This document shows positions 41,909 to 54,593 of a DNA stretch of 64,000 bases, piece by piece. The stretch is from Candidatus Moraniibacteriota bacterium. Lineage in GTDB: Bacteria > Patescibacteriota > Minisyncoccia > Moranbacterales > UBA1568. The position numbers were made by a program, and so were the translations under genes. Positions within the stretch are counted from its first letter, which is position 1, and the number at the start of each line of letters is the position of its first letter. Below the pieces are notes generated by a model. The model ran no database searches. It saw nothing but the letters and a program-made list of their open reading frames with translations, and had not been told where the DNA came from. The stretch lies in assembly GCA_016699875.1 (NCBI GenBank), contig CP064989.1:1013332-1077331 (forward strand). Direction: 5' to 3'.

Positions 41909-44224
41909 GTGTCTCGTATGTTTCTCAAACGGATCGAAATTTCGGGGTTTAAGTCGTTTGCACGGAAAACAGTGTTGGAGTTTTCCGGCGAGAAAGGGAG
42001 TTTCCCGCTTACGGCGATTGTCGGACCGAATGGTTCCGGAAAATCAAATGTTGCCGATGCGATACGTTGGACTATCGGCGAACAATCAGCGAAGCATCTG
42101 CGCGGCAAGAAGAGTGAAGATGTAATCTTTGCCGGGACAGGTACAAAAGCGCGGCTGGGGAGTGCGTCGGTTTCGTTGTTCTTTGACAATAGCGACAAAA
42201 AAATCCCGGTTGAATATGTGGAAGTTGTCGTAACGCGCCGGCTTTTTCGAGATGGCGAGAGCGAATATCTCATCAATGGCTCCCGGGTACGACTCTTGGA
42301 TGTGACGGATTTGTTGGCTCAAGCATCGATCGGAAAAGATAGCTATTCGGTTATCACCCAAGGCATGTCGGATGCGGTCTTGTCCGCATCGCCCCTCGAG
42401 CGGCGTATGATGCTGGAAGAAGCCGCGGGCGTGAAACAGTATCGTTTGGAGAAAGAGCGGTCGCTCCGGAAATTGGAATCGACACGGGAGAACCTCGTGC
42501 GGGTGGATGCGCTCCTTGTTGAGATCGAACCGCATCTCAAGAATCTGAAGAGGCAGGCCGAGAGGGCGTCGCGCGGCGCGGAGGTAGCAGCATCGCTTCG
42601 TGAGAAACAAGTTCGGCGGTTTGCGTTTTTATGGCACGCATTTGAAAAAGAGCGGAGAGAGTTTGAAGGAACATTTGAGGCAGACTCCCTTCGTCTTCGT
42701 GATATGGAACAGCAATCCGAAGCAGTCAATCGTGATCTTATCGAAGAATCGAAACGGATTGAAACGCCCAAGACAGAAACTCATGGTCGGGACATTCGCG
42801 TACTTCGCGAATCACTCTACGGCGTGGAGCGGGAGTTGTCGGTGGTTCTGGGAAAGTGCGAAGTGGAAGAAGAGCGCCGTAAGCCTCGCGAGGTGGTAGA
42901 AAGTGTCGCCGTTGATCGGGAATTTGTGCGGAAGCATCTCGCCGAGATCCGTTCGCATCAGGAGAAACTTATTGATCGGCTTTCGCATGTCGAATCGCTC
43001 GATGAGCTGCAGGAATTGCGCGAATTGGCACACGTCATTCAGACGCGTCTCTCGGAGCTTCACGGGCATGCCGGTGCCGGGACGGTGGTCACCAAACATA
43101 CCGTTGAACTTTCGGCGGAAGAGTTGCATAAAAGTGATGGACGGCTTGATGCACTCCGCCAAGAAGAATCTCGTCTTTCAGAGAAGAAAGCGACTCTTCA
43201 AGGAGAGATATCCGCAGAAGAAAAACGTTCTGAAGAAGCGATGAAGCGTCTCGAGGAAAGTCGTCGGAAATTCTTCGAACTTGAGCGAAAGGCGCGCGAT
43301 ATTCAAGCAGAGATGAACCGTCTGAAGGATGCTGAAAATGAACGCAAGGTGCGTCGTGCGCGCGTCGAAGTCCGTGAGGAAGATCTGACGAAAGAGATTC
43401 TCGAAGAACTTCATGTGAAGCCGGAAGAGCTGGTATGGGATGGCGAGGCGATCGATGCGGATAAGTTCGAACGCGACATTATCCGACTCAAGGTGGAGCT
43501 TGAGCATATCGGCGGTATCGATCCTCTGGTAGTTGAAGAATACGCAGAAACAGAGAAACGATTCTCATTTCTTACGACAGAATCAGCGGATCTCAAGAAA
43601 GCGGCTCAATCGCTCCGTCACGTGATTCGAGAAATGGATGACAGAATCCATGTCGCATTCGAATCGGCATGGAAAGAAGTTCATCGCGAGTTCGATCGCT
43701 ATTTCAAAATCATATTCGGCGGCGGCGAAGCGAAACTTCTGAAGGTTCCCATAGAACGTCGCGGAAGTGCGGGACCGGTCGATGGTATTTCGGAAGATGA
43801 TGCCTCTGATGTGTCCAATGATACCGATATCGAGCCTGAATACGGAAGACGAGAGACTGATATTGGCATTGATATTGCCGCCTCGCCACCGGGAAAGAAA
43901 ATAGCGAATCTCGCGATGCTCTCTGGCGGGGAGCGGTCGCTCACGGCGCTCGCGCTTCTTTTTGCAATTATTTCTCACAACCCGCCGCCTTTTTCCGTGC
44001 TCGACGAGGTGGAAGCGGCGCTCGATGAAGCGAATTCAAAACGCTTCAGCGATCTCTTGTCCGAGCTTTCGGAGCGGACCCAATTTATCGCCATCACGCA
44101 CAATCGCGAGACGATGCGTCGCGCATCCATTCTCTATGGTGTCACCATGGGAGATGACGGCATCTCCAAAATTCTCTCCGTCCGCCTCGATCAAATCGGC
44201 ATTGGCGGAAAGATACGGGAGTAG
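41909..44224 (+). CDS. SMC-family chromosome-segregation ATPase, unusually short (771 aa) with no recognisable hinge
   Basis: N-terminal RIEISGFKSFARKTVLEF...IVGPNGSGKSNVADAIRW (Walker A). C-terminal LSGGERSLTALALLFAI (signature) and VLDEVEAALD (Walker B). The middle is uninterrupted E/R/K-rich coiled coil. Confidence 0.8.
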   Translation: MSRMFLKRIEISGFKSFARKTVLEFSGEKGSFPLTAIVGPNGSGKSNVADAIRWTIGEQSAKHLRGKKSEDVIFAGTGTKARLGSASVSLFFDNSDKKIPVEYVEVVVTRRLFRDGESEYLINGSRVRLLDVTDLLAQASIGKDSYSVITQGMSDAVLSASPLERRMMLEEAAGVKQYRLEKERSLRKLESTRENLVRVDALLVEIEPHLKNLKRQAERASRGAEVAASLREKQVRRFAFLWHAFEKERREFEGTFEADSLRLRDMEQQSEAVNRDLIEESKRIETPKTETHGRDIRVLRESLYGVERELSVVLGKCEVEEERRKPREVVESVAVDREFVRKHLAEIRSHQEKLIDRLSHVESLDELQELRELAHVIQTRLSELHGHAGAGTVVTKHTVELSAEELHKSDGRLDALRQEESRLSEKKATLQGEISAEEKRSEEAMKRLEESRRKFFELERKARDIQAEMNRLKDAENERKVRRARVEVREEDLTKEILEELHVKPEELVWDGEAIDADKFERDIIRLKVELEHIGGIDPLVVEEYAETEKRFSFLTTESADLKKAAQSLRHVIREMDDRIHVAFESAWKEVHREFDRYFKIIFGGGEAKLLKVPIERRGSAGPVDGISEDDASDVSNDTDIEPEYGRRETDIGIDIAASPPGKKIANLAMLSGGERSLTALALLFAIISHNPPPFSVLDEVEAALDEANSKRFSDLLSELSERTQFIAITHNRETMRRASILYGVTMGDDGISKILSVRLDQIGIGGKIRE

Positions 44225-44300
44225 CGGTATTTTCTTGCCAGCGGGAGTGGAATTCGATAGAGTGGGGGCAGTGTTTATTAGGTTGATTGTTTCTGAAATT

Positions 44301-46199
44301 ATGCGCGAAGATATCGTGTTTGCTCGGAGGGAAAAATTGGATCGGGTGACATCGGAAGTTGGCGATGCGTTTCCGGAGGAGTCGCACCGGACACATACGA
44401 ATGTCGAAGCGCTTTCCGATTTTGAATCGCTCGCGGAAAAAGAAATACAAGTGTCGCTCGTTGGACGGGTCAGGTCTCTTCGAAGCATGGGAAAAATCGC
44501 TTTTGCGCATATCGAGGATGAAAGCGGCAAGATGCAGATCTTCATACGGAGGGGCGCGCTTTCAAACGAATTGTTCTCGCTGTTTGTCGATGGTGTCGAC
44601 GTGGGGGATTTTATCGAAGCGACGGGGACGCTTTTCACTACCAAGCAGAATGAGAAGACACTCGCGGTTTCGACATGGCGAATGCTTTCGAAATCTCTGC
44701 GTCCCATGCCGTCAGAGTTCTACGGACTCAAAGATGAAGAAGAATTGTTGCGGCGGCGCTATCTCGACCTCGCAATGAATCCGGAAACAAGAGAACTCTT
44801 TCGTAAGAAATCCATCTTCTGGCAGACCATTCGGAATTTCCTTGCCGAAGAAAACTTTCTCGAAGTGCAGACGCCGGTTCTGGAGCATGTGCCGGGCGGC
44901 GCTGAAGCTGAGCCGTTCGTGACACATCATAATGCGCTTGACCAGGATTTCTACCTGCGCATTTCGCTGGAGCTTCCTTTGAAGCGTCTCTTGGTCGGCG
45001 GATATGAGCGCGTGTTTGAAATCGGGCGCGTTTTCCGCAACGAAGGCATTGACCGCGAGCATTTGCAGGAGTTCGACCACATGGAATTTTATGCCGCCTA
45101 TGCGGATATGAAGACGGGCATGGAACTGGTGGAGCAGCTCTATCGACTTATCGTCGAGCGCGTGACGGGTAACGTAAAGACTGTTTGGAATGATGAAACA
45201 ATTGATTGGCAGAAGCCTTTCGAGAGAGTGGATTATTTCACCGCATTCAAAAAAGAAACCGGCATCGATCTTTCGGAAGATATAACCATTGAGACTTTGA
45301 AGCGGAAATCGGACGAACTGGGAATCAAGTATGAATCGTCATACGGGAAGGGGAGAATGATTGATACGATCTATAAAAAGACAGTGCGAAAGAAACTCAT
45401 TCAGCCGTGCTTTTTGGTGGGGCATCCGATCGAGGTGTCGCCCTTGGCAAAGCGCGATCCGAAGTCGCCAAACAAAACGCTTCGCTTCCAGCCGATTGCG
45501 TGCGCAAGCGAACTCGGGAACGGTTTTGCAGAGCTTAATGACCCAATAGATCAGCGATCACGCTTCGAGGAACAAATGAAGCTGCGTGAGAGTGGTGATG
45601 TCGAAGCGCAGCAGCTTGACGAAGATTTCCTCGAAGCACTTGAATATGGCATGCCCCCCGCTTGTGGCTTCGGCATGAGCGAGCGTTTCTTTGCTATCCT
45701 TATGAATCGCTCCGTGCGCGAGACAGTCATTTTTCCTCCGATGAGAGACAAAGAACTGGATAAAAAACAAGGAAAGAAAACATTGCAAATAGCGGTGGCT
45801 ATTATCAACACGGGAATTGGATTGAAACCCTGGCAAGAACTGAATACGATAGCACATCTGAATGCTGCATTTGGAGCGAGAATTGGAAAGAGTCTATTCT
45901 TTCAAGACGAGATTACAACGGAAGATAATCAAAAAATAAAGCTGAATATCCAACACGCTATCATTATTAAAACGGTTCCATCAAATAATGTAATGCAATT
46001 GCTTGTAAGAAATGCGAAGGAACAACACGTAGAAGTTTCCGAGTTTACCGCTGAAATGTTGGAAACGACGAATGATAAGAAGGTTATCGATCTTACCCAG
46101 AAGAAAGAGCTGAAAGATGTACAATATTTGGGGGCACTTTTATTTGGGGAAAAAGAACTCGTTGAGAAACTCACTCAAGGGTTTGACCTGCATGAATAG
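44301..46199 (+). CDS. lysS: lysyl-tRNA synthetase (class II) carrying a ~145-aa C-terminal extension
   Basis: OB-fold N-domain and class-II core (FLEVQTPVLE...; motif 2 EIGRVFRNEGIDREHLQEFDHMEFY; motif 3 GFGMSERFF). The canonical end (...VIFPPMRD) is followed by extra sequence through 46199. Confidence 0.88.
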   Translation: MREDIVFARREKLDRVTSEVGDAFPEESHRTHTNVEALSDFESLAEKEIQVSLVGRVRSLRSMGKIAFAHIEDESGKMQIFIRRGALSNELFSLFVDGVDVGDFIEATGTLFTTKQNEKTLAVSTWRMLSKSLRPMPSEFYGLKDEEELLRRRYLDLAMNPETRELFRKKSIFWQTIRNFLAEENFLEVQTPVLEHVPGGAEAEPFVTHHNALDQDFYLRISLELPLKRLLVGGYERVFEIGRVFRNEGIDREHLQEFDHMEFYAAYADMKTGMELVEQLYRLIVERVTGNVKTVWNDETIDWQKPFERVDYFTAFKKETGIDLSEDITIETLKRKSDELGIKYESSYGKGRMIDTIYKKTVRKKLIQPCFLVGHPIEVSPLAKRDPKSPNKTLRFQPIACASELGNGFAELNDPIDQRSRFEEQMKLRESGDVEAQQLDEDFLEALEYGMPPACGFGMSERFFAILMNRSVRETVIFPPMRDKELDKKQGKKTLQIAVAIINTGIGLKPWQELNTIAHLNAAFGARIGKSLFFQDEITTEDNQKIKLNIQHAIIIKTVPSNNVMQLLVRNAKEQHVEVSEFTAEMLETTNDKKVIDLTQKKELKDVQYLGALLFGEKELVEKLTQGFDLHE

Positions 46200-46255
46200 T
46201 TTTTAACTAATGGGGTTTTCTATTGATGCAATGAATATATTTTTGTTAGGATGAC

Positions 46256-46435
46256 ATGAATAAAGATCAAGAAAAAGAAATTCAAAAGAAGTTTGACGAG
46301 ATTTTGACGGAGGCGGAACGAAAAATTTCGGAGCTTGAAAAAAGTCGTGACGTGCTTGTCGCTGACATTGCTGAACAGGCACGGCTTGCTGCAGTTGAGC
46401 GGCTGAAGAAAGGTATTTCCGGACCAAGTAATTGA
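46256..46435 (+). CDS. small hypothetical helical protein (59 aa)
   Basis: ATG ORF MNKDQEKEIQKKFDEILTEAERKISELEKSRDVLVADIAEQARLAAVERLKKGISGPSN, below the ORF-track length cutoff. Lies in a low-GC stretch just upstream of the 838-aa gene. Confidence 0.3.
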   Translation: MNKDQEKEIQKKFDEILTEAERKISELEKSRDVLVADIAEQARLAAVERLKKGISGPSN

Positions 46436-46480
46436 AATTATCTCGATGGGCGGTGAAATGATGCTTTATAACGCTGACTT

Positions 46481-48997
46481 ATGACGGTGCCATTGATGCG
46501 CGCACTTGAGAGTGCGACTCTTGGAAAAAATACGGAGAGCATCTCCAAAGAAGGAGAAGGAAAAGAGGAGAAAGAAGAGATAGGAAATGATCGCAATGTA
46601 GAAGATAAACAAAGCGAGGAAAGATTTAAGGAAAGAGCCGTGGCGATTGATGATCGTACGGAAGAACTTTCCGTCGAGAGTGTAAAAAACAGAGTGCGTG
46701 CGTGTTCCTCGGGTGTGAGTGAATTGGATATGGAAAAAGCGCTCGCCGGAAAGACGAGCGAGGAGATAAAAAGAATTGAAAACGAGTCAAGGCAGGTAGC
46801 TTCCGGTGTTGTTACGGAGAGTCTGGGCTATTTAAAGGAGATGCTGAGCAATGTTCCCGGATCGGCGAAAAGAGTTGTTGAGGGGATCGGTTCTGCGGCG
46901 GCGCATCCTGTCCGGACGGTTCACGAAACTTTCGATCTTATTTTCACCGTTCTTTCTGGGAAGCTTGAAGGGATGTTGGGATACGAAAATCTCCCTGAGC
47001 AACAAGCGCTTGAGAAGATGCAATTGGACTTTGGGAAAACGCATGGATCAATTTCTGCGGAACTCGAGACTTTTAAAAAAGATCCTGTGGGGGAAGGGCT
47101 CGCTATTGCGAGTATCGTGACGGGAGGTGTGGGTATAGCTCGCAAGGCAGCTGGTTTTGCTGGGAAAATGGGGTCCGCTGGGAGGGTTGCGGAAATCGAG
47201 CAAGCGGGAGCGATTGTCCGTACGGGAGAAGGCGTGACAAAAGCGGAACAAGCGGTATCGAGGGGTGTCCCTGTCGAAGAAACGGCGAATACTGCCTTTT
47301 CTGCTGAAAAGATAATAGGGAAAGCCGGTGGCAAGGGGGAATTTCCGGGATCTGTTTCTCTCGAAGCGAAAGTCGCTACCCTTGGTGCGGAGGGGAAGAA
47401 TCTCAATCGTATCAGAGAGGTAGAAGAGGTTTTGCCGGACGCTGAGTTTCCAGTGGAAACAGCTGATGTTCCTGTAAGTATGAATGCTACGAAAGACATT
47501 TCGCGTATCGGCGCTATTGAAAAAGCGGGAGCTCTGGGCGGAGCGGTGAAGTCGGGAGAGATGAGCGGCCTAAGATCTGAAGAGGTGGAATCAAAGAAAG
47601 AAAAATTTTTAACGGGAGAAGAACGACAGGACATTCGATCTTTCAGCAAACGGTTCGCGCCTTTTCGGAGGGATGAGCTAGCTCAAAATATTCGCGACCA
47701 GCGAAGAACTGATCGTCAGGAAAGGGCAAAAGTAACTGAAGAAAACGAAGGTCGAGACAGAAAACGTGAGGAAATCTCGACTGATATCGAAGCACTGAAA
47801 ATTCGGCAGTCTGAACTTGAAAAGACCGTTAGTGAAATTGAGCTGTCGATCCGTTCCGATAAGTCACGATTATTCTCTCGAATCCAAGAGTTTTTCGGAA
47901 GAAAGAATCTTAAGAGAGAAAGGACGTTGGAAACAACCCAAGAACAATTGGATCAGGTTCAGAATGAAATCGAAGAAAAGAACAAGCTCTTGGGCGAAAT
48001 GCAAGATATTCTTTTTGAAGAAACGCATCTTGAAAAAGCAAAAAGTGCATTAGAAGAGTTTTATGGTCGTCAGAGAGACATCAAGACAATGTATGAGTCG
48101 GAGAGTGATATTCGGGATGTTGAGAGTATTTCAAGGAAGTATAATACACTCTTCGTGCACTCTATGCCGGAGAGCAGCGTGTTTCAGAAAGGTACAGGGG
48201 TAAATAATCCAGGGATAAACACTGGAGAGGATTTTGGTGCCAAGGAAAGAGTGAATTTAATTCGTGGTATTAAGCCGACCATTTCAACCTCGACATTGGA
48301 GAATTTAGATTATGAGACAAGTAAGCGCGACGAGATGTACCAAGCCGGCGTTATTATTGGAGGTGGTCGAGTCGTGAGTGCCTATCGAGGAGATGCTGCA
48401 ACTCTTACGCACAGTCTATTTTCAAAGAAAGCGAAATACGATAGAAATCCTTTTTTGAGTGACACGAGTATACAGAATGATATTGAGGGAAGAATAGACG
48501 ACGCTATAAATAAACGATTTCCCGAGTCACCAGCAGCTGGCAAGAGAGTCTTGTCTGAAGAGGCATTGGGAAGAAGTGGTAATCCTGTTAATATAGACGG
48601 GTCTGGATATGCATATGGATGGAACGAGCTGGTTGTTGAAGATCCAAAAATTTCCGGTTTATATATACGAGAGGGGTTTCACTTTGATCCATGGAAATAC
48701 GTTGATTTAAGCGAAAGGCTTAACATCCCCTTGTACTTTTTGGGAACGGGAGGAGAGATTCGAAAATGGGATGAGGAATGGTTGTTATCACAAGCCGGAT
48801 TTGAAAGTTGGGAATTTGAAGACCGCATGAGAAAATCATCTTTTGATGAGATTATGAATTCAACTCCAAATGTCACTCAAGAAGAGAGGCTAGATATAAT
48901 TGATGACCTTCTGAAAGGAAGTATTCTTCGCGGAGAGAAGTTTTCTCGAGAAGTTCAGAATATGAAACGTGCTTTTAAACAGCGAACGGTAAAGTAA
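46481..48997 (+). CDS. large (838 aa) acidic coiled-coil-rich hypothetical protein, no recognisable domains
   Basis: Long uninterrupted ORF, E/K-rich; the central region is predicted coiled coil; the C-terminal ~240 aa are globular (…GYAYGWNELVVEDPKISGLYIREGFHFDPWKYV...). No TM helix or signal peptide. Confidence 0.6.
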   Translation: MTVPLMRALESATLGKNTESISKEGEGKEEKEEIGNDRNVEDKQSEERFKERAVAIDDRTEELSVESVKNRVRACSSGVSELDMEKALAGKTSEEIKRIENESRQVASGVVTESLGYLKEMLSNVPGSAKRVVEGIGSAAAHPVRTVHETFDLIFTVLSGKLEGMLGYENLPEQQALEKMQLDFGKTHGSISAELETFKKDPVGEGLAIASIVTGGVGIARKAAGFAGKMGSAGRVAEIEQAGAIVRTGEGVTKAEQAVSRGVPVEETANTAFSAEKIIGKAGGKGEFPGSVSLEAKVATLGAEGKNLNRIREVEEVLPDAEFPVETADVPVSMNATKDISRIGAIEKAGALGGAVKSGEMSGLRSEEVESKKEKFLTGEERQDIRSFSKRFAPFRRDELAQNIRDQRRTDRQERAKVTEENEGRDRKREEISTDIEALKIRQSELEKTVSEIELSIRSDKSRLFSRIQEFFGRKNLKRERTLETTQEQLDQVQNEIEEKNKLLGEMQDILFEETHLEKAKSALEEFYGRQRDIKTMYESESDIRDVESISRKYNTLFVHSMPESSVFQKGTGVNNPGINTGEDFGAKERVNLIRGIKPTISTSTLENLDYETSKRDEMYQAGVIIGGGRVVSAYRGDAATLTHSLFSKKAKYDRNPFLSDTSIQNDIEGRIDDAINKRFPESPAAGKRVLSEEALGRSGNPVNIDGSGYAYGWNELVVEDPKISGLYIREGFHFDPWKYVDLSERLNIPLYFLGTGGEIRKWDEEWLLSQAGFESWEFEDRMRKSSFDEIMNSTPNVTQEERLDIIDDLLKGSILRGEKFSREVQNMKRAFKQRTVK

Positions 48998-49103
48998 TAT
49001 ATTCATGTGAGGTTTTTTGTATATATACGAAGTTTTATCCATATTGCTATTCTACTTGTGTCGCCCTCGCCATTCTCTATTCAATAACTCTCTTTTGCTC
49101 CCT

Positions 49104-49388
49104 ATGCTTGATATTCAATATATTCGTGAGAAGAAAGATGTGGTTGCGAAGGCGGCAGCTAACAAGGGATTGTCGCTTGATGTGGAGCGGCTCTTGGCTG
49201 TTGATGCGGAGCGCATTTTGCTTCTGCAAGACACTGAGGAACTCAAGTCTATCAAGAATGATCTGAATGATCTCATGGCAAAGGCGACGCCAAAAGAGCG
49301 GTCGGAAATTATCGCGCGGGGAACAACAGTGCTTGATCAATTGATCAAAATGAAGAATATGATCTTTCGGAAGAGCTTTCGCTTTTGA
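49104..49388 (+). pseudogene. diverged partial copy of the serS 5' end (N-terminal tRNA-binding arm only, 94 codons)
   Basis: MLDIQYIREKKDVVAKAAANKGLSLDVERLLAVDAERILLLQDTEELKSIKNDLNDLMAK... aligns with the first ~95 aa of the intact SerRS at 52656. About 40 nt around the ATG, including 5'-UTR bases, are near-identical to 52641-52680. Confidence 0.6.
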
Positions 49389-50986
49389 GGAAAAATTTTC
49401 AGGTGCGCGAGGGACAGACGGTCAAAGAACATTTCGAGGAAACATTCTTAAAGAGAATCGGTATAAAGGACATAGAGGGTGCTATGGCGTACATCGAGGA
49501 ACGGAAGCGTCAGACGGACACGCGCAATAGATCATCCGTGCTTGATGGTTCTGTGCTGATAATGTCAAGCGATCTCATCAAGGGGTTCGATTCTCGCTTC
49601 CTTGACAAACTGCTTGATCGCGGGTTCGTTTCGCCGGAATTTGTCGGTGCGGAGACGCACGATGCAAAAACAAAATTAAAGCAGGGCGATTCGACGCCGT
49701 GGGATACCGATCTTGAGCGAGTAAAAGGAACGAGTATTTCTGAAGCGCTTGAGAGATCTTCTCTGGCGGATGGCTATGGCGATGTTGTTGCCGTTATTCG
49801 AAATCGAGGGCAATTCAATGAGACAAAGATTGGCGAACCGGCGATTGATGACGGTCGGATGGAACTTTTTGAAAGTGGTGTTATCAGGTCCGATCATATG
49901 GGCATCCGGACCGGATTTGGATCCACTGAAATCGATGCTCTTATTGCGAAGGGAGAAGTATCTGAAAGGAGTATGGATGATATTCGCTTTTCGATTGCTA
50001 AAAAAGGCTTCTATATTCCCGTTGTTGACCGTTCCGGTCGCGTGATTTTTATGCCCGGAGAATTTGACGAATACCGAAAAATATTCCGAGGTCTTGACCG
50101 GTATCACGGAGATCCGATGAGCGTGAGTGAAGATTGGAGGCAATCGCCACATGTAAACGAGATAGAGTCCATCGCTCAAACGAAAGAAAATATCGCGTAC
50201 CTTGAGAGTGCTGGAGGCGCTCTTTGCGATGAGCTCAAAGGGCTCCTTGCGGAATCAGGCATAGCTTTGCGCGCGGAGAAATTTGATGATGGAGTTGCCG
50301 GCGCGGTCGTGATCGATACCGGATCGACCGGTCGTGGCGCCGCGCTTGATGGCAATATTGACTTTGATTTTGTGCTCAAGGTGAACGATAATGATTTTGA
50401 AAAAGCAAAAGTGGCGGTGGAAAAAATGAAAGACTGGTATCCATTGGATACCTCATACGAGGTAAACGGTATGCGAACGTACCGCTTCAAGGGTTTTGAA
50501 CGCGATGGCAAGCATATTGATCTGGACGTGAGCGTGGTGAGAAAATCTGATTCCGAAAGTATGGATGCGAACGAGGCGATATCGAGAAAATATGAATCGA
50601 TACGGAAAAACTTCGGAGAAGAAGTCCTGCTGGATGTTTTGAGCAATGTGCGGTTTGCAAAAAAGAAATTGAAAGAAGCTGGCTGTTACAAGAAAGGTAT
50701 TGATCGAAGTGCGGGACAAGAGGGTGGGCTTGGCGGTATTGGTGTCGAGACATGGATATTGAAACACGATGGAGATGCTGTGCGGGCATTTACGGATTTT
50801 TACGGAAATGCATATGAGAATGGAGGTCTTCTTTCTTTCGAAAACTTCAAGAAAAAGTATAAAGTTTTTGGCGCAGGCAAAAATATTCGCGGTGATACTC
50901 GTTCGGAAAATTTTGTTGAGAAAATGGATGAGGTAGGATATTTAAAAATGGCCGAAGTGGCAAAGTCGATAGTTGAAATGAAGTAA
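49385..50986 (+). CDS. hypothetical protein with a central Pol-beta-superfamily nucleotidyltransferase motif; N-terminal ~290 aa unrecognised
   Basis: VVIDTGSTGRGAALDGNIDFDFVLKV matches the G[SG]-x(9-13)-D-x-[DE] core and resembles the cGAS/DncV-type GS...GRG..(S)D[IV]D arrangement. A likely third acidic residue lies in HIDLDVSVV. The downstream helical region reads GGLGGIGVETWIL. The ORF-track start is a TTG; the real start is uncertain (GTG at 49403 or a later ATG). Confidence 0.55.
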   Translation: MRKNFQVREGQTVKEHFEETFLKRIGIKDIEGAMAYIEERKRQTDTRNRSSVLDGSVLIMSSDLIKGFDSRFLDKLLDRGFVSPEFVGAETHDAKTKLKQGDSTPWDTDLERVKGTSISEALERSSLADGYGDVVAVIRNRGQFNETKIGEPAIDDGRMELFESGVIRSDHMGIRTGFGSTEIDALIAKGEVSERSMDDIRFSIAKKGFYIPVVDRSGRVIFMPGEFDEYRKIFRGLDRYHGDPMSVSEDWRQSPHVNEIESIAQTKENIAYLESAGGALCDELKGLLAESGIALRAEKFDDGVAGAVVIDTGSTGRGAALDGNIDFDFVLKVNDNDFEKAKVAVEKMKDWYPLDTSYEVNGMRTYRFKGFERDGKHIDLDVSVVRKSDSESMDANEAISRKYESIRKNFGEEVLLDVLSNVRFAKKKLKEAGCYKKGIDRSAGQEGGLGGIGVETWILKHDGDAVRAFTDFYGNAYENGGLLSFENFKKKYKVFGAGKNIRGDTRSENFVEKMDEVGYLKMAEVAKSIVEMK

Positions 50987-51292
50987 CAAGTATACAGCGC
51001 TCGAAAAGAAGGAATTTAACACAGTGATTCATGAAAAAGGTGTTGGACATCATGTGAAGGGGGTTTCCGAGGGTGCTGATGAAATCATTGTATTTGAGCC
51101 GGAGGATGTATGGATTGTTCGAAAAGAATCGTTGGTGGACATAGTAATGGAGAAAAATTGAAAGGTTCAGATTGTTTTGGTGCACCCATGTGTTATAAGG
51201 GAACCTTCTATAAAAGACGAAATGGGCATTTCATTGGAACTTGTCCTTTAGATAGAAAAAGGAAGAATTGTGCTTTTGAGCAGAAAAACATA

Positions 51293-51317
51293 AAGTTCTC
51301 ATTGACAATGAGAACTT
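51293..51317. promoter_or_regulatory. perfect 25-nt palindrome (10-bp arms) with TTGACA in its loop, ~20 nt upstream of the AAA-ATPase gene; candidate operator or -35 region
   Basis: aagttctcat-tgaca-atgagaactt. The arm sequence atgagaac recurs at the start codon (atgaatgagaacc). Confidence 0.35.
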
Positions 51318-51336
51318 ATGGGTGTAACCTCTCAAT

Positions 51337-52626
51337 ATGAATGAGAACCTAAAAACCATTGAAAAACGGACGCTTGTTGAGATCGCGGTGGAACAGCGGA
51401 CGTTTCTTGAATCTCTCCCGCTGTCTATTTCGCGGGAGGAGCTTGTTCGCGTACAGGCGCATATGGCGATCCCGCATACGGTGGTCATTGCCGGTATTCG
51501 TCGGTCGGGAAAGTCAACGCTTTTGCGGCAAATCATGGCGCTTTCCAAAGAGCCGTGGTACTACTTTAATTTCGAAGACGAGCGGCTCATCGGGTTTTCC
51601 GCTAGAGATTTTAACCTTTTGTATGAAGCGCTTATCGAGACCTTCGGCGAGCGACGCGTGTTCTTCTTTGATGAAATACAAAATGTCGCCGGATGGGAGC
51701 GGTTTGTGCGCCGTCTCTCGGAGAGCGGGCGCAAATTTTATATCACCGGTTCGAACGCGTCACTTCTCTCGCGTGAATTGGGGACCAAACTGACGGGTCG
51801 GTATGTGTCGCATGATCTCTACCCTTTTTCGTTTCGGGAATACCTGCGTTTTCAGGGCGTCGCATATTCTCTTGGAGACATTCTCGAGACGACGAAGCGT
51901 GCCGCGCTCAAAAGTCGTTTCAATGACTACCTCCGAGAAGGGGGGATGCCGGAATATCTCACCTATCAGTCGCCGGAAACGCTCAAGAAAGTGTATGACG
52001 ATATTCTCTATCGAGATATTCTCGTGCGATATGATATCCGGGAAGATCAGGCGCTTCGCGAACTTTCTTTTTATCTCCTCTCCAACATATCTCAGTCATT
52101 CTCGTACAATGGTTTGAAGGGTCTGTTTCGGCTCGGGAGTATGAATACGGTTCGAAGTTATGTCGGATATTTGGAAAATAGTTTTCTCTTCTCTACGATC
52201 CGCGCCTATGCCGATTCACTCAAGAAGCAAATAGCGTCGCCCAAAAAAGTCTACGGCATTGATACGGGAATGGCACAGACGATCGGATTTCGGTTTTCCG
52301 AGAACCGCGGAGCGTTTCTGGAGAATGTGGTTTTTCTGGAGTTGAAGCGGCGCGGGAAAGAGCTCTATTACTATCGAGCTGCGGATGGATGCGAGGCTGA
52401 TTTTCTTGTGAGAGAAGACAACAAAGTTGCTTCGGTCCTGCAGGTATCATGGAGCATCACGGAAGAAAAAACGCGCGAACGAGAACTGCGTGGTCTTCAA
52501 AGCGCCCTCAAGGCGCATGGTCTTCAAAACGGATTGCTCCTTACCGATGACGAACGGGACATGATCCATTCCGAAGAAGGAACGATTGAAGTGAAACCCG
52601 TTTTTGAATGGCTTTTGGAGGAGTAA
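51337..52626 (+). CDS. AAA-family ATPase with C-terminal DUF4143-type domain
   Basis: Walker A VVIAGIRRSGKSTLL; Walker B VFFFDEIQNV; ~430 aa, an architecture typical of the widespread AAA+DUF4143 family. Confidence 0.7.
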   Translation: MNENLKTIEKRTLVEIAVEQRTFLESLPLSISREELVRVQAHMAIPHTVVIAGIRRSGKSTLLRQIMALSKEPWYYFNFEDERLIGFSARDFNLLYEALIETFGERRVFFFDEIQNVAGWERFVRRLSESGRKFYITGSNASLLSRELGTKLTGRYVSHDLYPFSFREYLRFQGVAYSLGDILETTKRAALKSRFNDYLREGGMPEYLTYQSPETLKKVYDDILYRDILVRYDIREDQALRELSFYLLSNISQSFSYNGLKGLFRLGSMNTVRSYVGYLENSFLFSTIRAYADSLKKQIASPKKVYGIDTGMAQTIGFRFSENRGAFLENVVFLELKRRGKELYYYRAADGCEADFLVREDNKVASVLQVSWSITEEKTRERELRGLQSALKAHGLQNGLLLTDDERDMIHSEEGTIEVKPVFEWLLEE

Positions 52627-52655
52627 GATTTTTATTTGAAATTATTTTTCTCCTT

Positions 52656-53963
52656 ATGCTTGACATTCAATATATTCGCGATCACAAAGATGAGGTATCA
52701 AAGGCGGCAGAGGCGAAGCATGTCTCGGTGGATATCGATCAGCTTTTGGAACTCGACGCGCGGCGCAAGGAACTGCTGCGAGAGATAGAAGAACTTCGCT
52801 CCATCAAAAACGATATCAATGATCTTATTCCGAAAGCAGCTCCGGATGAGCGGGCGGAGCTGGTGCTTCGAGGCAAAGAAGTGAAAGGAAAACTTGATGT
52901 GAAAGAGCCGGAACTCAAAGAAACAGAAGAGTCATTTCGAATGCTCATGTATCTGGTCCCGAATATTCCAAGCGAAGATACGCCTTCCGGCCCGGATGAA
53001 AGTGGGAATCAAGTGCTCCGGCACTGGGGTGAGAAGCCGTCTTTTGAATTCCAACCGAAAGAGCATTGGGAAATCGCCGAGGCGCTCGGACTGATGGATA
53101 CGGAACGTGCGACCAAAGTGAGCGGTGCGCGGTTTCTCTATCTGAAGGGCGACCTGGTGCTTTTGGAATGGGCGATGATGTCGCTCGCATTTCAGACACT
53201 TACCAATGAAGAAACGCTCCGGTCTATTGCCGCTGAAGCTTCGCTTGATGTTCCGACGACGCCGTTTGTGCCGGTACTGCCGCCGGTTATGATTCGCCCG
53301 GATATGCACCGTCGCATGGGGCGACTCGATCCGGAAGAGATGTATGCACTCGAGCGGGACAATCTGACGCTCATCGGGAGTGCGGAGCACACGCTTGGTT
53401 CGATGTATGCTGATGAAATTCTTGCCGAGAAAGAACTGCCTATCCGTCTTGTCGGGTTTTCGGCGGCATTCCGGCGCGAGGCGGGATCATATGGGAAAGA
53501 CATGAAAGGAATGCTTCGCTTGCATCAGTTCAATAAGCTTGAGATGGAGTCCTTTACGACGCCGGAAGCGTCTCTCGCGGAGCAGAATTTTTTTGTGGCG
53601 ATACAGGAGTATTTGCTTCGCCAGCTGAATCTCCCATATCAGGTGGTTGCTGTCTGTTCGGGAGATATGGGAAAGCCGGATATGCGGCAGATTGATATAG
53701 AGGCCTGGATGCCCGGGCAGGGGAAATACCGCGAGACAAACACGTCGGACCTTATTGGCGACTTCCAGGCGCGTCGGCTTGAGACGCGAGTGCGCCGCGA
53801 AAACGGATCGGTCGAATATGCGCACATGAATGATGCCACCGCCTTTTCCGAGCGGCCGCTCATTGCCATTCTCGAAAACTATCAACAAGCCGATGGCAGC
53901 GTCATTGTTCCGAAAGTTCTGCGCCCGTTTGTCGGGAAGGAGGTGATTGCAGTAAAAAAGTAG
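52656..53963 (+). CDS. serS: seryl-tRNA synthetase
   Basis: N-terminal coiled-coil arm (MLDIQYIRDHKDEV...), then a class-II core with motif 2 GFSAAFRREAGSYGKDMKGMLRLHQFNKLE and motif 3 near GDFQARRLE. Downstream of the first Met at 52608; start chosen at the conserved MLDI. Confidence 0.9.
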   Translation: MLDIQYIRDHKDEVSKAAEAKHVSVDIDQLLELDARRKELLREIEELRSIKNDINDLIPKAAPDERAELVLRGKEVKGKLDVKEPELKETEESFRMLMYLVPNIPSEDTPSGPDESGNQVLRHWGEKPSFEFQPKEHWEIAEALGLMDTERATKVSGARFLYLKGDLVLLEWAMMSLAFQTLTNEETLRSIAAEASLDVPTTPFVPVLPPVMIRPDMHRRMGRLDPEEMYALERDNLTLIGSAEHTLGSMYADEILAEKELPIRLVGFSAAFRREAGSYGKDMKGMLRLHQFNKLEMESFTTPEASLAEQNFFVAIQEYLLRQLNLPYQVVAVCSGDMGKPDMRQIDIEAWMPGQGKYRETNTSDLIGDFQARRLETRVRRENGSVEYAHMNDATAFSERPLIAILENYQQADGSVIVPKVLRPFVGKEVIAVKK

Positions 53964-54485: not shown

Positions 54486-54557
54486 GGGTCGGTAGCTCAG
54501 TGGTAGAGCAGCTCCCTTTTAAGGAGAATGTCGTGAGTTCGATCCTCACCCGACCCA
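54486..54557 (+). tRNA. tRNA-Lys (anticodon TTT)
   Basis: GGGTCGG-TA-GCTC-AGTGGTA-GAGC-A-GCTCC-CTTTTAA-GGAGA-ATGTC-GTGAG-TTCGATC-CTCAC-CCGACCC-A cloverleaf. One mismatch at the top of the anticodon stem. Confidence 0.8.
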
Positions 54558-54593
54558 CCTTTCAAAACTTCCAGCGGGCAGTAAATCACACCA

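Follow-up and report, generated by a model that had tools for sequence, protein, structure and literature searches.

A lysyl-tRNA synthetase of a Moraniibacteriota bacterium with a C-terminal DUF2000 domain of predicted PTH2-like fold

The lysS gene and its C-terminal extension

The 64,000-nucleotide stretch of DNA analysed here (the window; positions 1,013,332 to 1,077,331 of contig CP064989.1, assembly GCA_016699875.1) comes from a Candidatus Moraniibacteriota bacterium and carries a lysS gene whose product, a class II lysyl-tRNA synthetase (LysRS), continues beyond its usual C-terminus into a DUF2000 domain. All coordinates below are window positions. Judged by profile matches and gene order, the product of 44301–46199 is the housekeeping class II LysRS. 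The NF001756 and TIGR00499 models span residues 6–484 with scores of 551.3 bits (cutoff 468) and 505.3 bits (cutoff 427.6), respectively, and lysS holds a syntenic position, the order GreA-RR-BacA-FolD-ParA-SMC-lysS-serS matching that of the complete genome CP064974.1. The match to NF002821, the LysX model, is confined to the LysRS part of the protein and, at 461 bits, stays under the cutoff of 742. The current source annotation of the fused protein reads 'lysine--tRNA ligase' and nothing more. The gene comprises the following features.

44301..46199, + strand: entire lysS-DUF2000 gene of 632 codons and a stop (homologue starts, identity to the NCBI record P0001)
44301..45749, + strand: class II lysyl-tRNA synthetase core, residues 1–483 (PF01336, 50.9 bits; PF00152, 236 bits; NF001756 and TIGR00499)
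44451–44684, + strand: OB anticodon-binding domain of LysRS, residues 51–128 (PF01336)
44733–45743, + strand: class II (D/K/N) catalytic domain of LysRS, residues 145–481 (PF00152, model positions 1–307 of 308)
45750..45785, + strand: flexible Lys/Glu-rich linker of 12 residues, 484–495, KELDKKQGKKTL (predicted local distance difference test score, pLDDT, <50 in both models)
45786..46196, + strand: DUF2000 (PF09391) domain with a predicted PTH2-like alpha/beta fold, residues 496–632 (Pfam, structural model, Foldseek, hhalign)
45831..45857, + strand: start of helix alpha1 with invariant W511, N515 and H519; the conserved His of PTH2 AQxxHA has its counterpart in H519, and N515 and H519 are conserved DUF2000-wide
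46053..46082, + strand: invariant E585-M586-x-x-T589-T590-x-D592-x-K594 after strand beta4, at least 97% conserved in 69 fusions; in the region that matches the DAGxT loop of PTH2
46173..46190, + strand: C-terminal motif L-T625-x-x-F-x-L630, equivalent to PTH2 (V/I)TGxLKL; T625 and L630 are conserved family-wide

An open frame is present on the plus strand from 43962 to 46199, with the first 113 codons lying over the end of smc. When 23 homologues, which begin with MREDI, are aligned, they back the ATG at 44301 as the lysS start, and the product has 632 aa. The corresponding NCBI record (P0001, Candidatus Moraniibacteriota, 100% identical) has 681 aa and a start 49 codons upstream of this ATG, which overlaps the 3' end of smc (41909–44224); the homologues favour the shorter, 632-aa product, and the start in the record probably lies too far upstream. 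A promoter and terminator scan around the fused gene gave counts not above those in shuffled sequence. A tRNA-Lys(UUU) gene lies at 54486–54559, just downstream of serS and ~8 kb from lysS; it is syntenic with, and 92% identical to, a copy in CP064974.1.

A first-pass annotation, made from the sequence alone, had observed that the frame runs past the canonical LysRS end by about 145 aa. Beyond RETVIFPPMRD (the last D being encoded by 45747–45749), the frame adds 149 codons (45750–46196) before the stop at 46197–46199, and the sequence of the extension is exactly as it had been quoted. The start assigned to it at that time, 45757, falls 7 nt inside the linker, although the residue range given, 486–632, fits the numbering of the 632-aa product. 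The linker is 11–25 residues long and variable in sequence among 69 homologues. It is attached ~25 residues past class II motif 3, and its length, placement and predicted disorder are such that the tethered domain could reach the acceptor end of the tRNA.

What follows the linker is a full-length member of the DUF2000 family, to which the first-pass annotation had pointed as an alternative ('DUF2000-type families'): the Pfam match scores 70.6 bits (E = 1.6e-19, cutoff 25) and covers model positions 5–132 of 133. The family pattern consists of an N and an H on helix alpha1, F-x-x-x-M, a G that ends the last strand and a C-terminal T-x-x-x-x-L, and the residues conserved family-wide are all present (N515, H519, F582, M586, G616, T625 and L630). 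Because this match is joined by the recurrence of the domain on LysRS in more than 100 genomes (see below), the extension is not a chance read-through. Its only sequence relative in the PDB is 2GAX ('hypothetical protein Atu0240', Agrobacterium tumefaciens), retrieved with an E value of 0.008 by the single sequence and 3.7e-5 by a profile; 2GAX is also the best match in structure. Typical members of the family, however, are free-standing proteins of ~140 aa, whereas the domain found here represents a distinct and highly conserved subtype on LysRS that is ~20% identical to 2GAX and has extra invariant residues beyond those of other DUF2000 proteins (W511, D542, N549, K557, E585, T589, T590, D592, K594 and K602).

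Predicted fold and relation to peptidyl-tRNA hydrolase 2

An AlphaFold model of the extension, built from a 23-sequence alignment, reached a pLDDT of 86.7 and a predicted template modelling (TM) score, pTM, of 0.78, with the first 9 residues disordered. The predicted topology of the domain is beta-alpha-beta(hairpin)-beta-alpha-beta-alpha-alpha-beta-alpha. In the model of the full-length protein (pTM 0.48) the linker is disordered and the domain is undocked. When the model was compared with the PDB using Foldseek, the top match was 2GAX (E = 4.6e-10; TM 0.69 on the query and 0.76 on the target), followed by every solved peptidyl-tRNA hydrolase 2 (PTH2) structure, namely 2ZV3 (MJ0051), 3ERJ (AF2095), 1RLK (Ta0108), 1Q7S (human Bit1), 1XTY (Sulfolobus solfataricus) and 1WN2 (PH1539). 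The PTH2 matches all had a probability of 1.0, with E values from 2e-4 to 2e-3 and TM scores of 0.67–0.71 on target length, and there were no others below E = 0.1.

The first-pass annotation had suggested that the extension resembles PTH2 and had named a structure prediction lacking a PTH2-like fold as the outcome that would speak against it. The model retrieves 2GAX and then the PTH2 structures, so that the suggestion holds for the fold; for family membership it does not, as set out below. The motif echoes on which it had relied can also be traced in the alignments, where H519 stands opposite the His of AQxxHA, and T625 and L630 opposite the Thr and Leu of TGxLKL. The domain and PTH2/Bit1 have in common the alpha/beta fold, a His located on helix alpha1 and T-x-x-(L/F)-x-L at the C-terminus. 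For the profile comparison, PTH2 sequences were drawn from a PDB sequence search. A DUF2000 profile of 52 sequences, fused and free-standing, aligned with PTH2 end to end over 114 columns with 91% probability in hhalign. Kinship of the modelled domain with PTH2 is clear at the level of the fold, and DUF2000 and PTH2 probably share an ancestor.

Distribution, conservation and locus history of the fusion

The PF01336+PF00152+PF09391 architecture is found in many of the closest relatives of this LysRS, among them Moran-, Wolfe-, Doudna- and Parcubacteria. When GTDB species were scanned, each represented by one genome, 116 confirmed genome matches were obtained, of which the best 80 loci were inspected. 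In 78 of these 80 loci the domain and a class II LysRS share an open frame; the two others are a truncated ORF (open reading frame) and a locus in a Gracilibacteria genome, the latter probably reflecting an alternative genetic code. About 17 of the 80 loci are labelled archaeal, mostly DPANN (Nanoarchaeia, Woesearchaeota and Aenigmarchaeum), and many phyla of the candidate phyla radiation (CPR) appear among the labels. The first-pass annotation had asked whether the extension exists in lysS of relatives; it recurs in more than 100 genomes, though close relatives devoid of it exist. A profile search retrieved only 263 sequences at E<=1e-3 from 1.84 billion representative proteins, and the family is therefore a small one.

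Some ~150-aa relatives of the fused subtype that looked 'stand-alone' (P0121, P0123 and others) were rejected as fragments, coming from ~1-kb contigs and beginning at the LysRS C-terminal MKP/MRP. In the DPANN metagenome-assembled genomes (L006, L008, L009, L012, L015, L019, L041, L063, L073, L076, L081 and others) the fusion partner is a bacterial-type class II LysRS; compared with the window protein, the core is just 34–47% identical and the domain 49–61%. These identities hint that the module, or the fused gene as a whole, has been transferred between domains of life.

The first-pass annotation was not aware of any description of such a LysRS fusion. Nor did we find in the literature a paper on DUF2000, PF09391, Atu0240/2GAX or the LysRS-DUF2000 fusion; the family and the fused architecture are already visible in Pfam-annotated databases.

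Conservation was analysed in a set of 69 full-length fusions (2346 pairs). Mean pairwise identity is 56% in the DUF2000 domain, 46% in the LysRS catalytic domain and 42.5% in the OB anticodon-binding domain, and the DUF2000 domain is the better conserved region in 1974 of the 2346 pairs. Positions conserved in at least 90% of the sequences number 37 of 136 in the DUF2000 domain and 53 of 337 in the catalytic domain. By this measure the DUF2000 domain is under stronger constraint than the synthetase to which it is attached. The invariant residues are largely polar (N503, W511, N515, T516, H519, D542, N549, K557, E585, T589, T590, D592, K594, T599, K602 and T625) and sit at the C-termini of strands and the N-termini of helices, a pattern that typically marks active or ligand-binding sites and suggests such a site here.

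DUF2000 domains are also found in other combinations with synthetases and editing enzymes. One protein (P0194, L093 4001–6721, in a CPR-like context) has the architecture LysRS-B3/4-DUF2000, where B3/4 is the editing domain of the PheRS type. Its DUF2000 domain belongs to the free-standing subtype, and it therefore represents a second, independent fusion with LysRS. Two triple fusions build on the architecture seen in the window. In LysRS-DUF2000-AlaXM (P0156, L052) the third part is an AlaXM-like editing domain, whereas in LysRS-DUF2000-HDIG it is a tail of ~200 aa that matches HD/HDIG models in the four proteins scanned (P0115, P0136, P0153 and L005); the GLLHD(I/L)D motif of these tails recurs in similar, unscanned ~200-aa tails of L011, L023, L069 and L080. 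That these HD tails serve in tRNA 3'-end repair or in hydrolysis of diadenosine tetraphosphate (Ap4A) would be a guess.

Free-standing DUF2000 genes were scanned in 80 metagenomic loci, one subgroup mostly from Chlamydiota and Verrucomicrobiota, with L085 added from an earlier look-up. A YbaK-type deacylase (PF04073) is the immediate same-strand neighbour in five loci (L085, L096, L101, L104 and L155, in two arrangements) and an AlaX-like gene in three (L103, L122 and L124, with AlaX sequences mutually 22–24% identical); in one case (L140/L141) the adjoining gene is mnmA, for tRNA 2-thiouridylase. The gap between DUF2000 and these neighbours is 7–79 bp. As trans-editing genes are rare in genomes, they look enriched next to DUF2000, although some of the loci are related to each other.

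The locus itself differs among close relatives. The LysRS of CP064974.1 is 86% identical to that of the window but has just 501 aa, ends with FPPMRGK and lacks DUF2000; among close relatives with 85–89% identical LysRS the domain is absent, and one of these is fully syntenic. The domain is therefore dispensable for aminoacylation, an accessory module that has been gained or lost among close relatives. DNA homology with CP064974.1 (77.6%) ends exactly at the lysS stop of the latter, which corresponds to window position 45755, and resumes at serS, at window position 52654. The sequence in between includes the features below, which are listed without a strand.

46200..52607: lysS-serS island of ~6.4 kb absent from CP064974.1, with the DUF2000-coding extension at the left edge of the indel
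46481–48997: ORF838 (838 aa), no Pfam or PHROG match
49103–49323 (within ORF 49017–49388): duplicated serS 5' fragment, 71% identical to the start of the relative's serS
49385–50986: ORF533 (533 aa), no Pfam or PHROG match
51337–52626: AAA_14/DUF4143 ATPase in the lysS-serS interval

The serS fragment encodes a peptide similar to the SerRS N-terminus (MLDIQYIREKKD...) and lies ~3.3 kb upstream of the intact serS (52608–53963); it looks like a scar of insertion or rearrangement. Between ~46 and ~52 kb the GC content is lower (0.43–0.46) and the GC skew higher (0.22–0.29) than in the flanks. The DUF2000-coding segment (45750–46196) has a GC content of 0.378 and a GC content at third codon positions (GC3) of 0.369, as against 0.507 and 0.584, respectively, in the LysRS core (44301–45749). 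Among 72 other fusion genes the GC3 gap is 0.038 +/- 0.077, as against 0.215 here; it is smaller than this in 71 of them, and only one reaches 0.2. This suggests that in this lineage the module has had a history different from that of the core. In the 81%-identical protein P0002 the same fusion is followed directly by serS, and its domain DNA is ~75% identical to that of the window, near the level seen in the core.

Possible functions of the domain

Its fold, two separate events of fusion with LysRS and the company of three unrelated deacylase families link DUF2000 to LysRS and to aminoacyl-tRNA quality control, and we have very little doubt that the gene encodes a LysRS joined to a PTH2-fold DUF2000 domain that is tied to the handling of aminoacyl-tRNA. 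From this context we infer the binding of tRNA by the domain, hydrolysis and the substrate. The proposal that the domain acts in cis to hydrolyse an unwanted ester on tRNA-Lys seems to us plausible, if somewhat short of an even prospect. In this scheme the DUF2000 domain would capture tRNA-Lys by its acylated CCA end and cleave the unwanted ester, which might be either a non-cognate amino acid put on by LysRS (post-transfer editing) or an N-blocked or peptidyl group (Pth-like recycling), and the freed tRNA-Lys would be released beside the synthetase active site, where it could be recharged. Residues that might serve in catalysis or binding are W511, N515, H519, E585, T589/T590, D592, K594 and T625.

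Among synthetases that depend on pre-transfer editing, class II LysRS is the textbook case, and we know of no post-transfer editing domain in it. In Escherichia coli, pth(ts) mutants are reportedly limited by tRNA-Lys, and deficiency in Pth is said to kill the cells through tRNA-Lys starvation. On both counts LysRS is a fitting partner for such a module. A tblastn search of the 64-kb window with human PTH2 and E. coli Pth revealed no separate pth gene. We are more hesitant about the broader view that DUF2000 is a so far unrecognised class of aminoacyl-tRNA deacylases with the PTH2 fold, which would provide cis proofreading or peptidyl-tRNA-Lys recycling to LysRS in CPR and DPANN organisms; this we offer tentatively.

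A number of observations weigh against a hydrolytic role of the domain, beginning with its differences from PTH2, to which it is just 10–16% identical. PF01981, the PTH2 model, has no match at E<=1 in either the whole protein or the extension alone. The profile of 23 fused sequences, a shallow alignment, gave only a weak C-terminal match to PTH2 (4%, 59 columns); set against the 91% obtained with 52 sequences, this means that the link to PTH2 at the sequence level hinges on alignment depth. In the S. solfataricus Pth2, the residues singled out are reportedly Lys18, which belongs to the GKGK loop and is said to be catalytic, and Asp86. The GKGK lysine is missing from the domain, where its position is taken by Q512, flanked by P510 and W511. 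The Asp of the PTH2 DAGxT motif (D83) falls on T589 in one of the profile alignments and on the invariant E585 in the other, while laying the preceding beta-strands in register puts it one residue ahead of E585; among free-standing DUF2000 proteins this position varies. In place of DAGxT/PG the domain has E585-M586-x-x-T589-T590-x-D592, in place of PTH2 helix alpha2 it has a beta-hairpin (residues ~536–548), and it has an extra helix at residues 592–600. Because there is no PF01981 match, the GKGK lysine is absent and the equivalence of the Asp is ambiguous, the domain is not, by its sequence, a member of the PTH2 family. Were the domain a hydrolase, it would have to work with a set of catalytic residues other than that of PTH2; according to a 2026 paper, the active site of human PTRH2 is itself unconfirmed. 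The remaining points on this side concern the setting of the domain: it is near neutral (mean net charge –0.4), unlike the basic surface typical of tRNA binders; LysRS does without it in the close relatives mentioned above; an extra hydrolase could be redundant where B3/4 or AlaX is present on the same polypeptide, which would favour an accessory, non-catalytic role; and its higher identity could reflect a later lateral spread of the module instead of selection. Finally, one DUF2000 domain is fused to a fatty-acid desaturase (P0246), and the genes next to free-standing DUF2000 have for the most part no relation to tRNA (GntR, MFS, PhzF-like and a nicotinamide mononucleotide transporter).

Part of this evidence would suit a domain that handles tRNA without catalysis, a platform for the acceptor end or for tRNA-Lys that might raise affinity, hand Lys-tRNA-Lys to EF-Tu or present the tRNA to editing enzymes, whether these work in trans or belong to the same fusion. 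The absence of the PTH2 catalytic Lys and the lack of family-wide conservation of the Asp agree with this, as do the dispensability of the domain in close relatives and the fact that DUF2000 accompanies bona fide deacylases (B3/4, AlaX and YbaK) and does not replace them. On the other hand, some 16 invariant polar residues (among them His, Glu, Asp, Asn and Thr) exceed the usual needs of a platform, the domain is near neutral and not basic, and it is better conserved than the catalytic domain of the synthetase; we regard this explanation as rather unlikely. We consider it improbable that the domain binds or converts small molecules unrelated to tRNA, either as an amino acid or nucleotide sensor or as a small ester or amide hydrolase, thereby modulating LysRS or carrying out a metabolic side reaction. 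Such a role would accommodate the desaturase fusion, the lack of an assigned function for DUF2000, on which we found no literature, and the diversity of neighbours of free-standing members, which was evident in the first five neighbourhoods viewed and extends to rhodanese and CYTH/M14 genes. It sits poorly, however, with the near confinement of the fused subtype to LysRS (78 of the 80 loci inspected), with the two independent LysRS fusions, with the recurrence of three unrelated aminoacyl-tRNA deacylase families as partners or neighbours and with the nearest fold of known function being one that acts on the tRNA 3' end.

By analogy with LysX, in which LysRS is fused to an enzyme that uses its product, the domain might be a transferase that consumes Lys-tRNA-Lys and passes the lysine not to water but to some acceptor, such as a lipid, a precursor of the cell wall or a metabolite. 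A fold that binds an acyl-CCA end could in principle support such a transfer, and the desaturase fusion hints at a link with lipids. Yet neither a membrane segment nor an acceptor-binding domain was found in the window protein, the associations of DUF2000 are with deacylases and not with transferases of the Fem/MprF type, and we know of no transferase with a PTH2-like or DUF2000 fold; we therefore think this still less probable than a small-molecule role. The fusion might, lastly, be an artefact of mis-assembly, of a missed stop or frameshift, or of lysS having been joined to a separate downstream DUF2000 gene, for which one could cite the low GC3 of the domain relative to the core (0.369 versus 0.584) and the fact that it borders an indel in the comparison with a syntenic genome. 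Yet no stop interrupts the frame, this architecture recurs with a linker of similar length (11–25 residues) in the 78 loci and in many metagenome proteins, and P0002 has the same fusion; this recurrence across genomes effectively excludes an artefact.

A cis-acting hydrolase for esters of tRNA-Lys would have parallels among the appended or inserted editing domains of aminoacyl-tRNA synthetases and their free-standing relatives (ProRS INS/YbaK, AlaRS/ThrRS/AlaX, PheRS B3/4, LeuRS/IleRS/ValRS CP1 and the DTD-like domain of archaeal ThrRS); the editing domains are likewise hydrolytic modules for the tRNA 3' end tethered to a synthetase, a role that is putative here. The DUF2000 fold, however, is unrelated to all of them, and the 632-aa protein has no match at E<=1 to PF04073 (tRNA_edit/YbaK), PF07973 (tRNA_SAD), PF03483 (B3_4), CP1 or DTD. 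The mycobacterial LysX (MprF-LysRS) also joins a class II LysRS to a second domain that acts on the tRNA-Lys product (again putatively in our case), but its partner is an N-terminal membrane lysyl-phosphatidylglycerol synthase, whereas here it is a soluble C-terminal domain with a predicted PTH2 fold. To our knowledge, the PTH2 fold has never before been seen as a synthetase editing domain, and we know of no LysRS with such an activity.

If the domain indeed hydrolyses esters on tRNA-Lys, the LysRS of CPR and DPANN organisms would gain a proofreading or recycling function, DUF2000 would obtain its first function (the 2GAX structure having been released in 2006) and one more fold would be added to the tRNA-ester hydrolases attached to synthetases. 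Should the domain prove non-catalytic, the fusion would still give an essential enzyme an architecture that is widespread and marks lineages. The presence of a hydrolase-fold domain, better conserved than LysRS itself, in two lineages that rank among life's most reduced and least understood points to a need for quality control or tRNA recycling that may be specific to host-dependent organisms.

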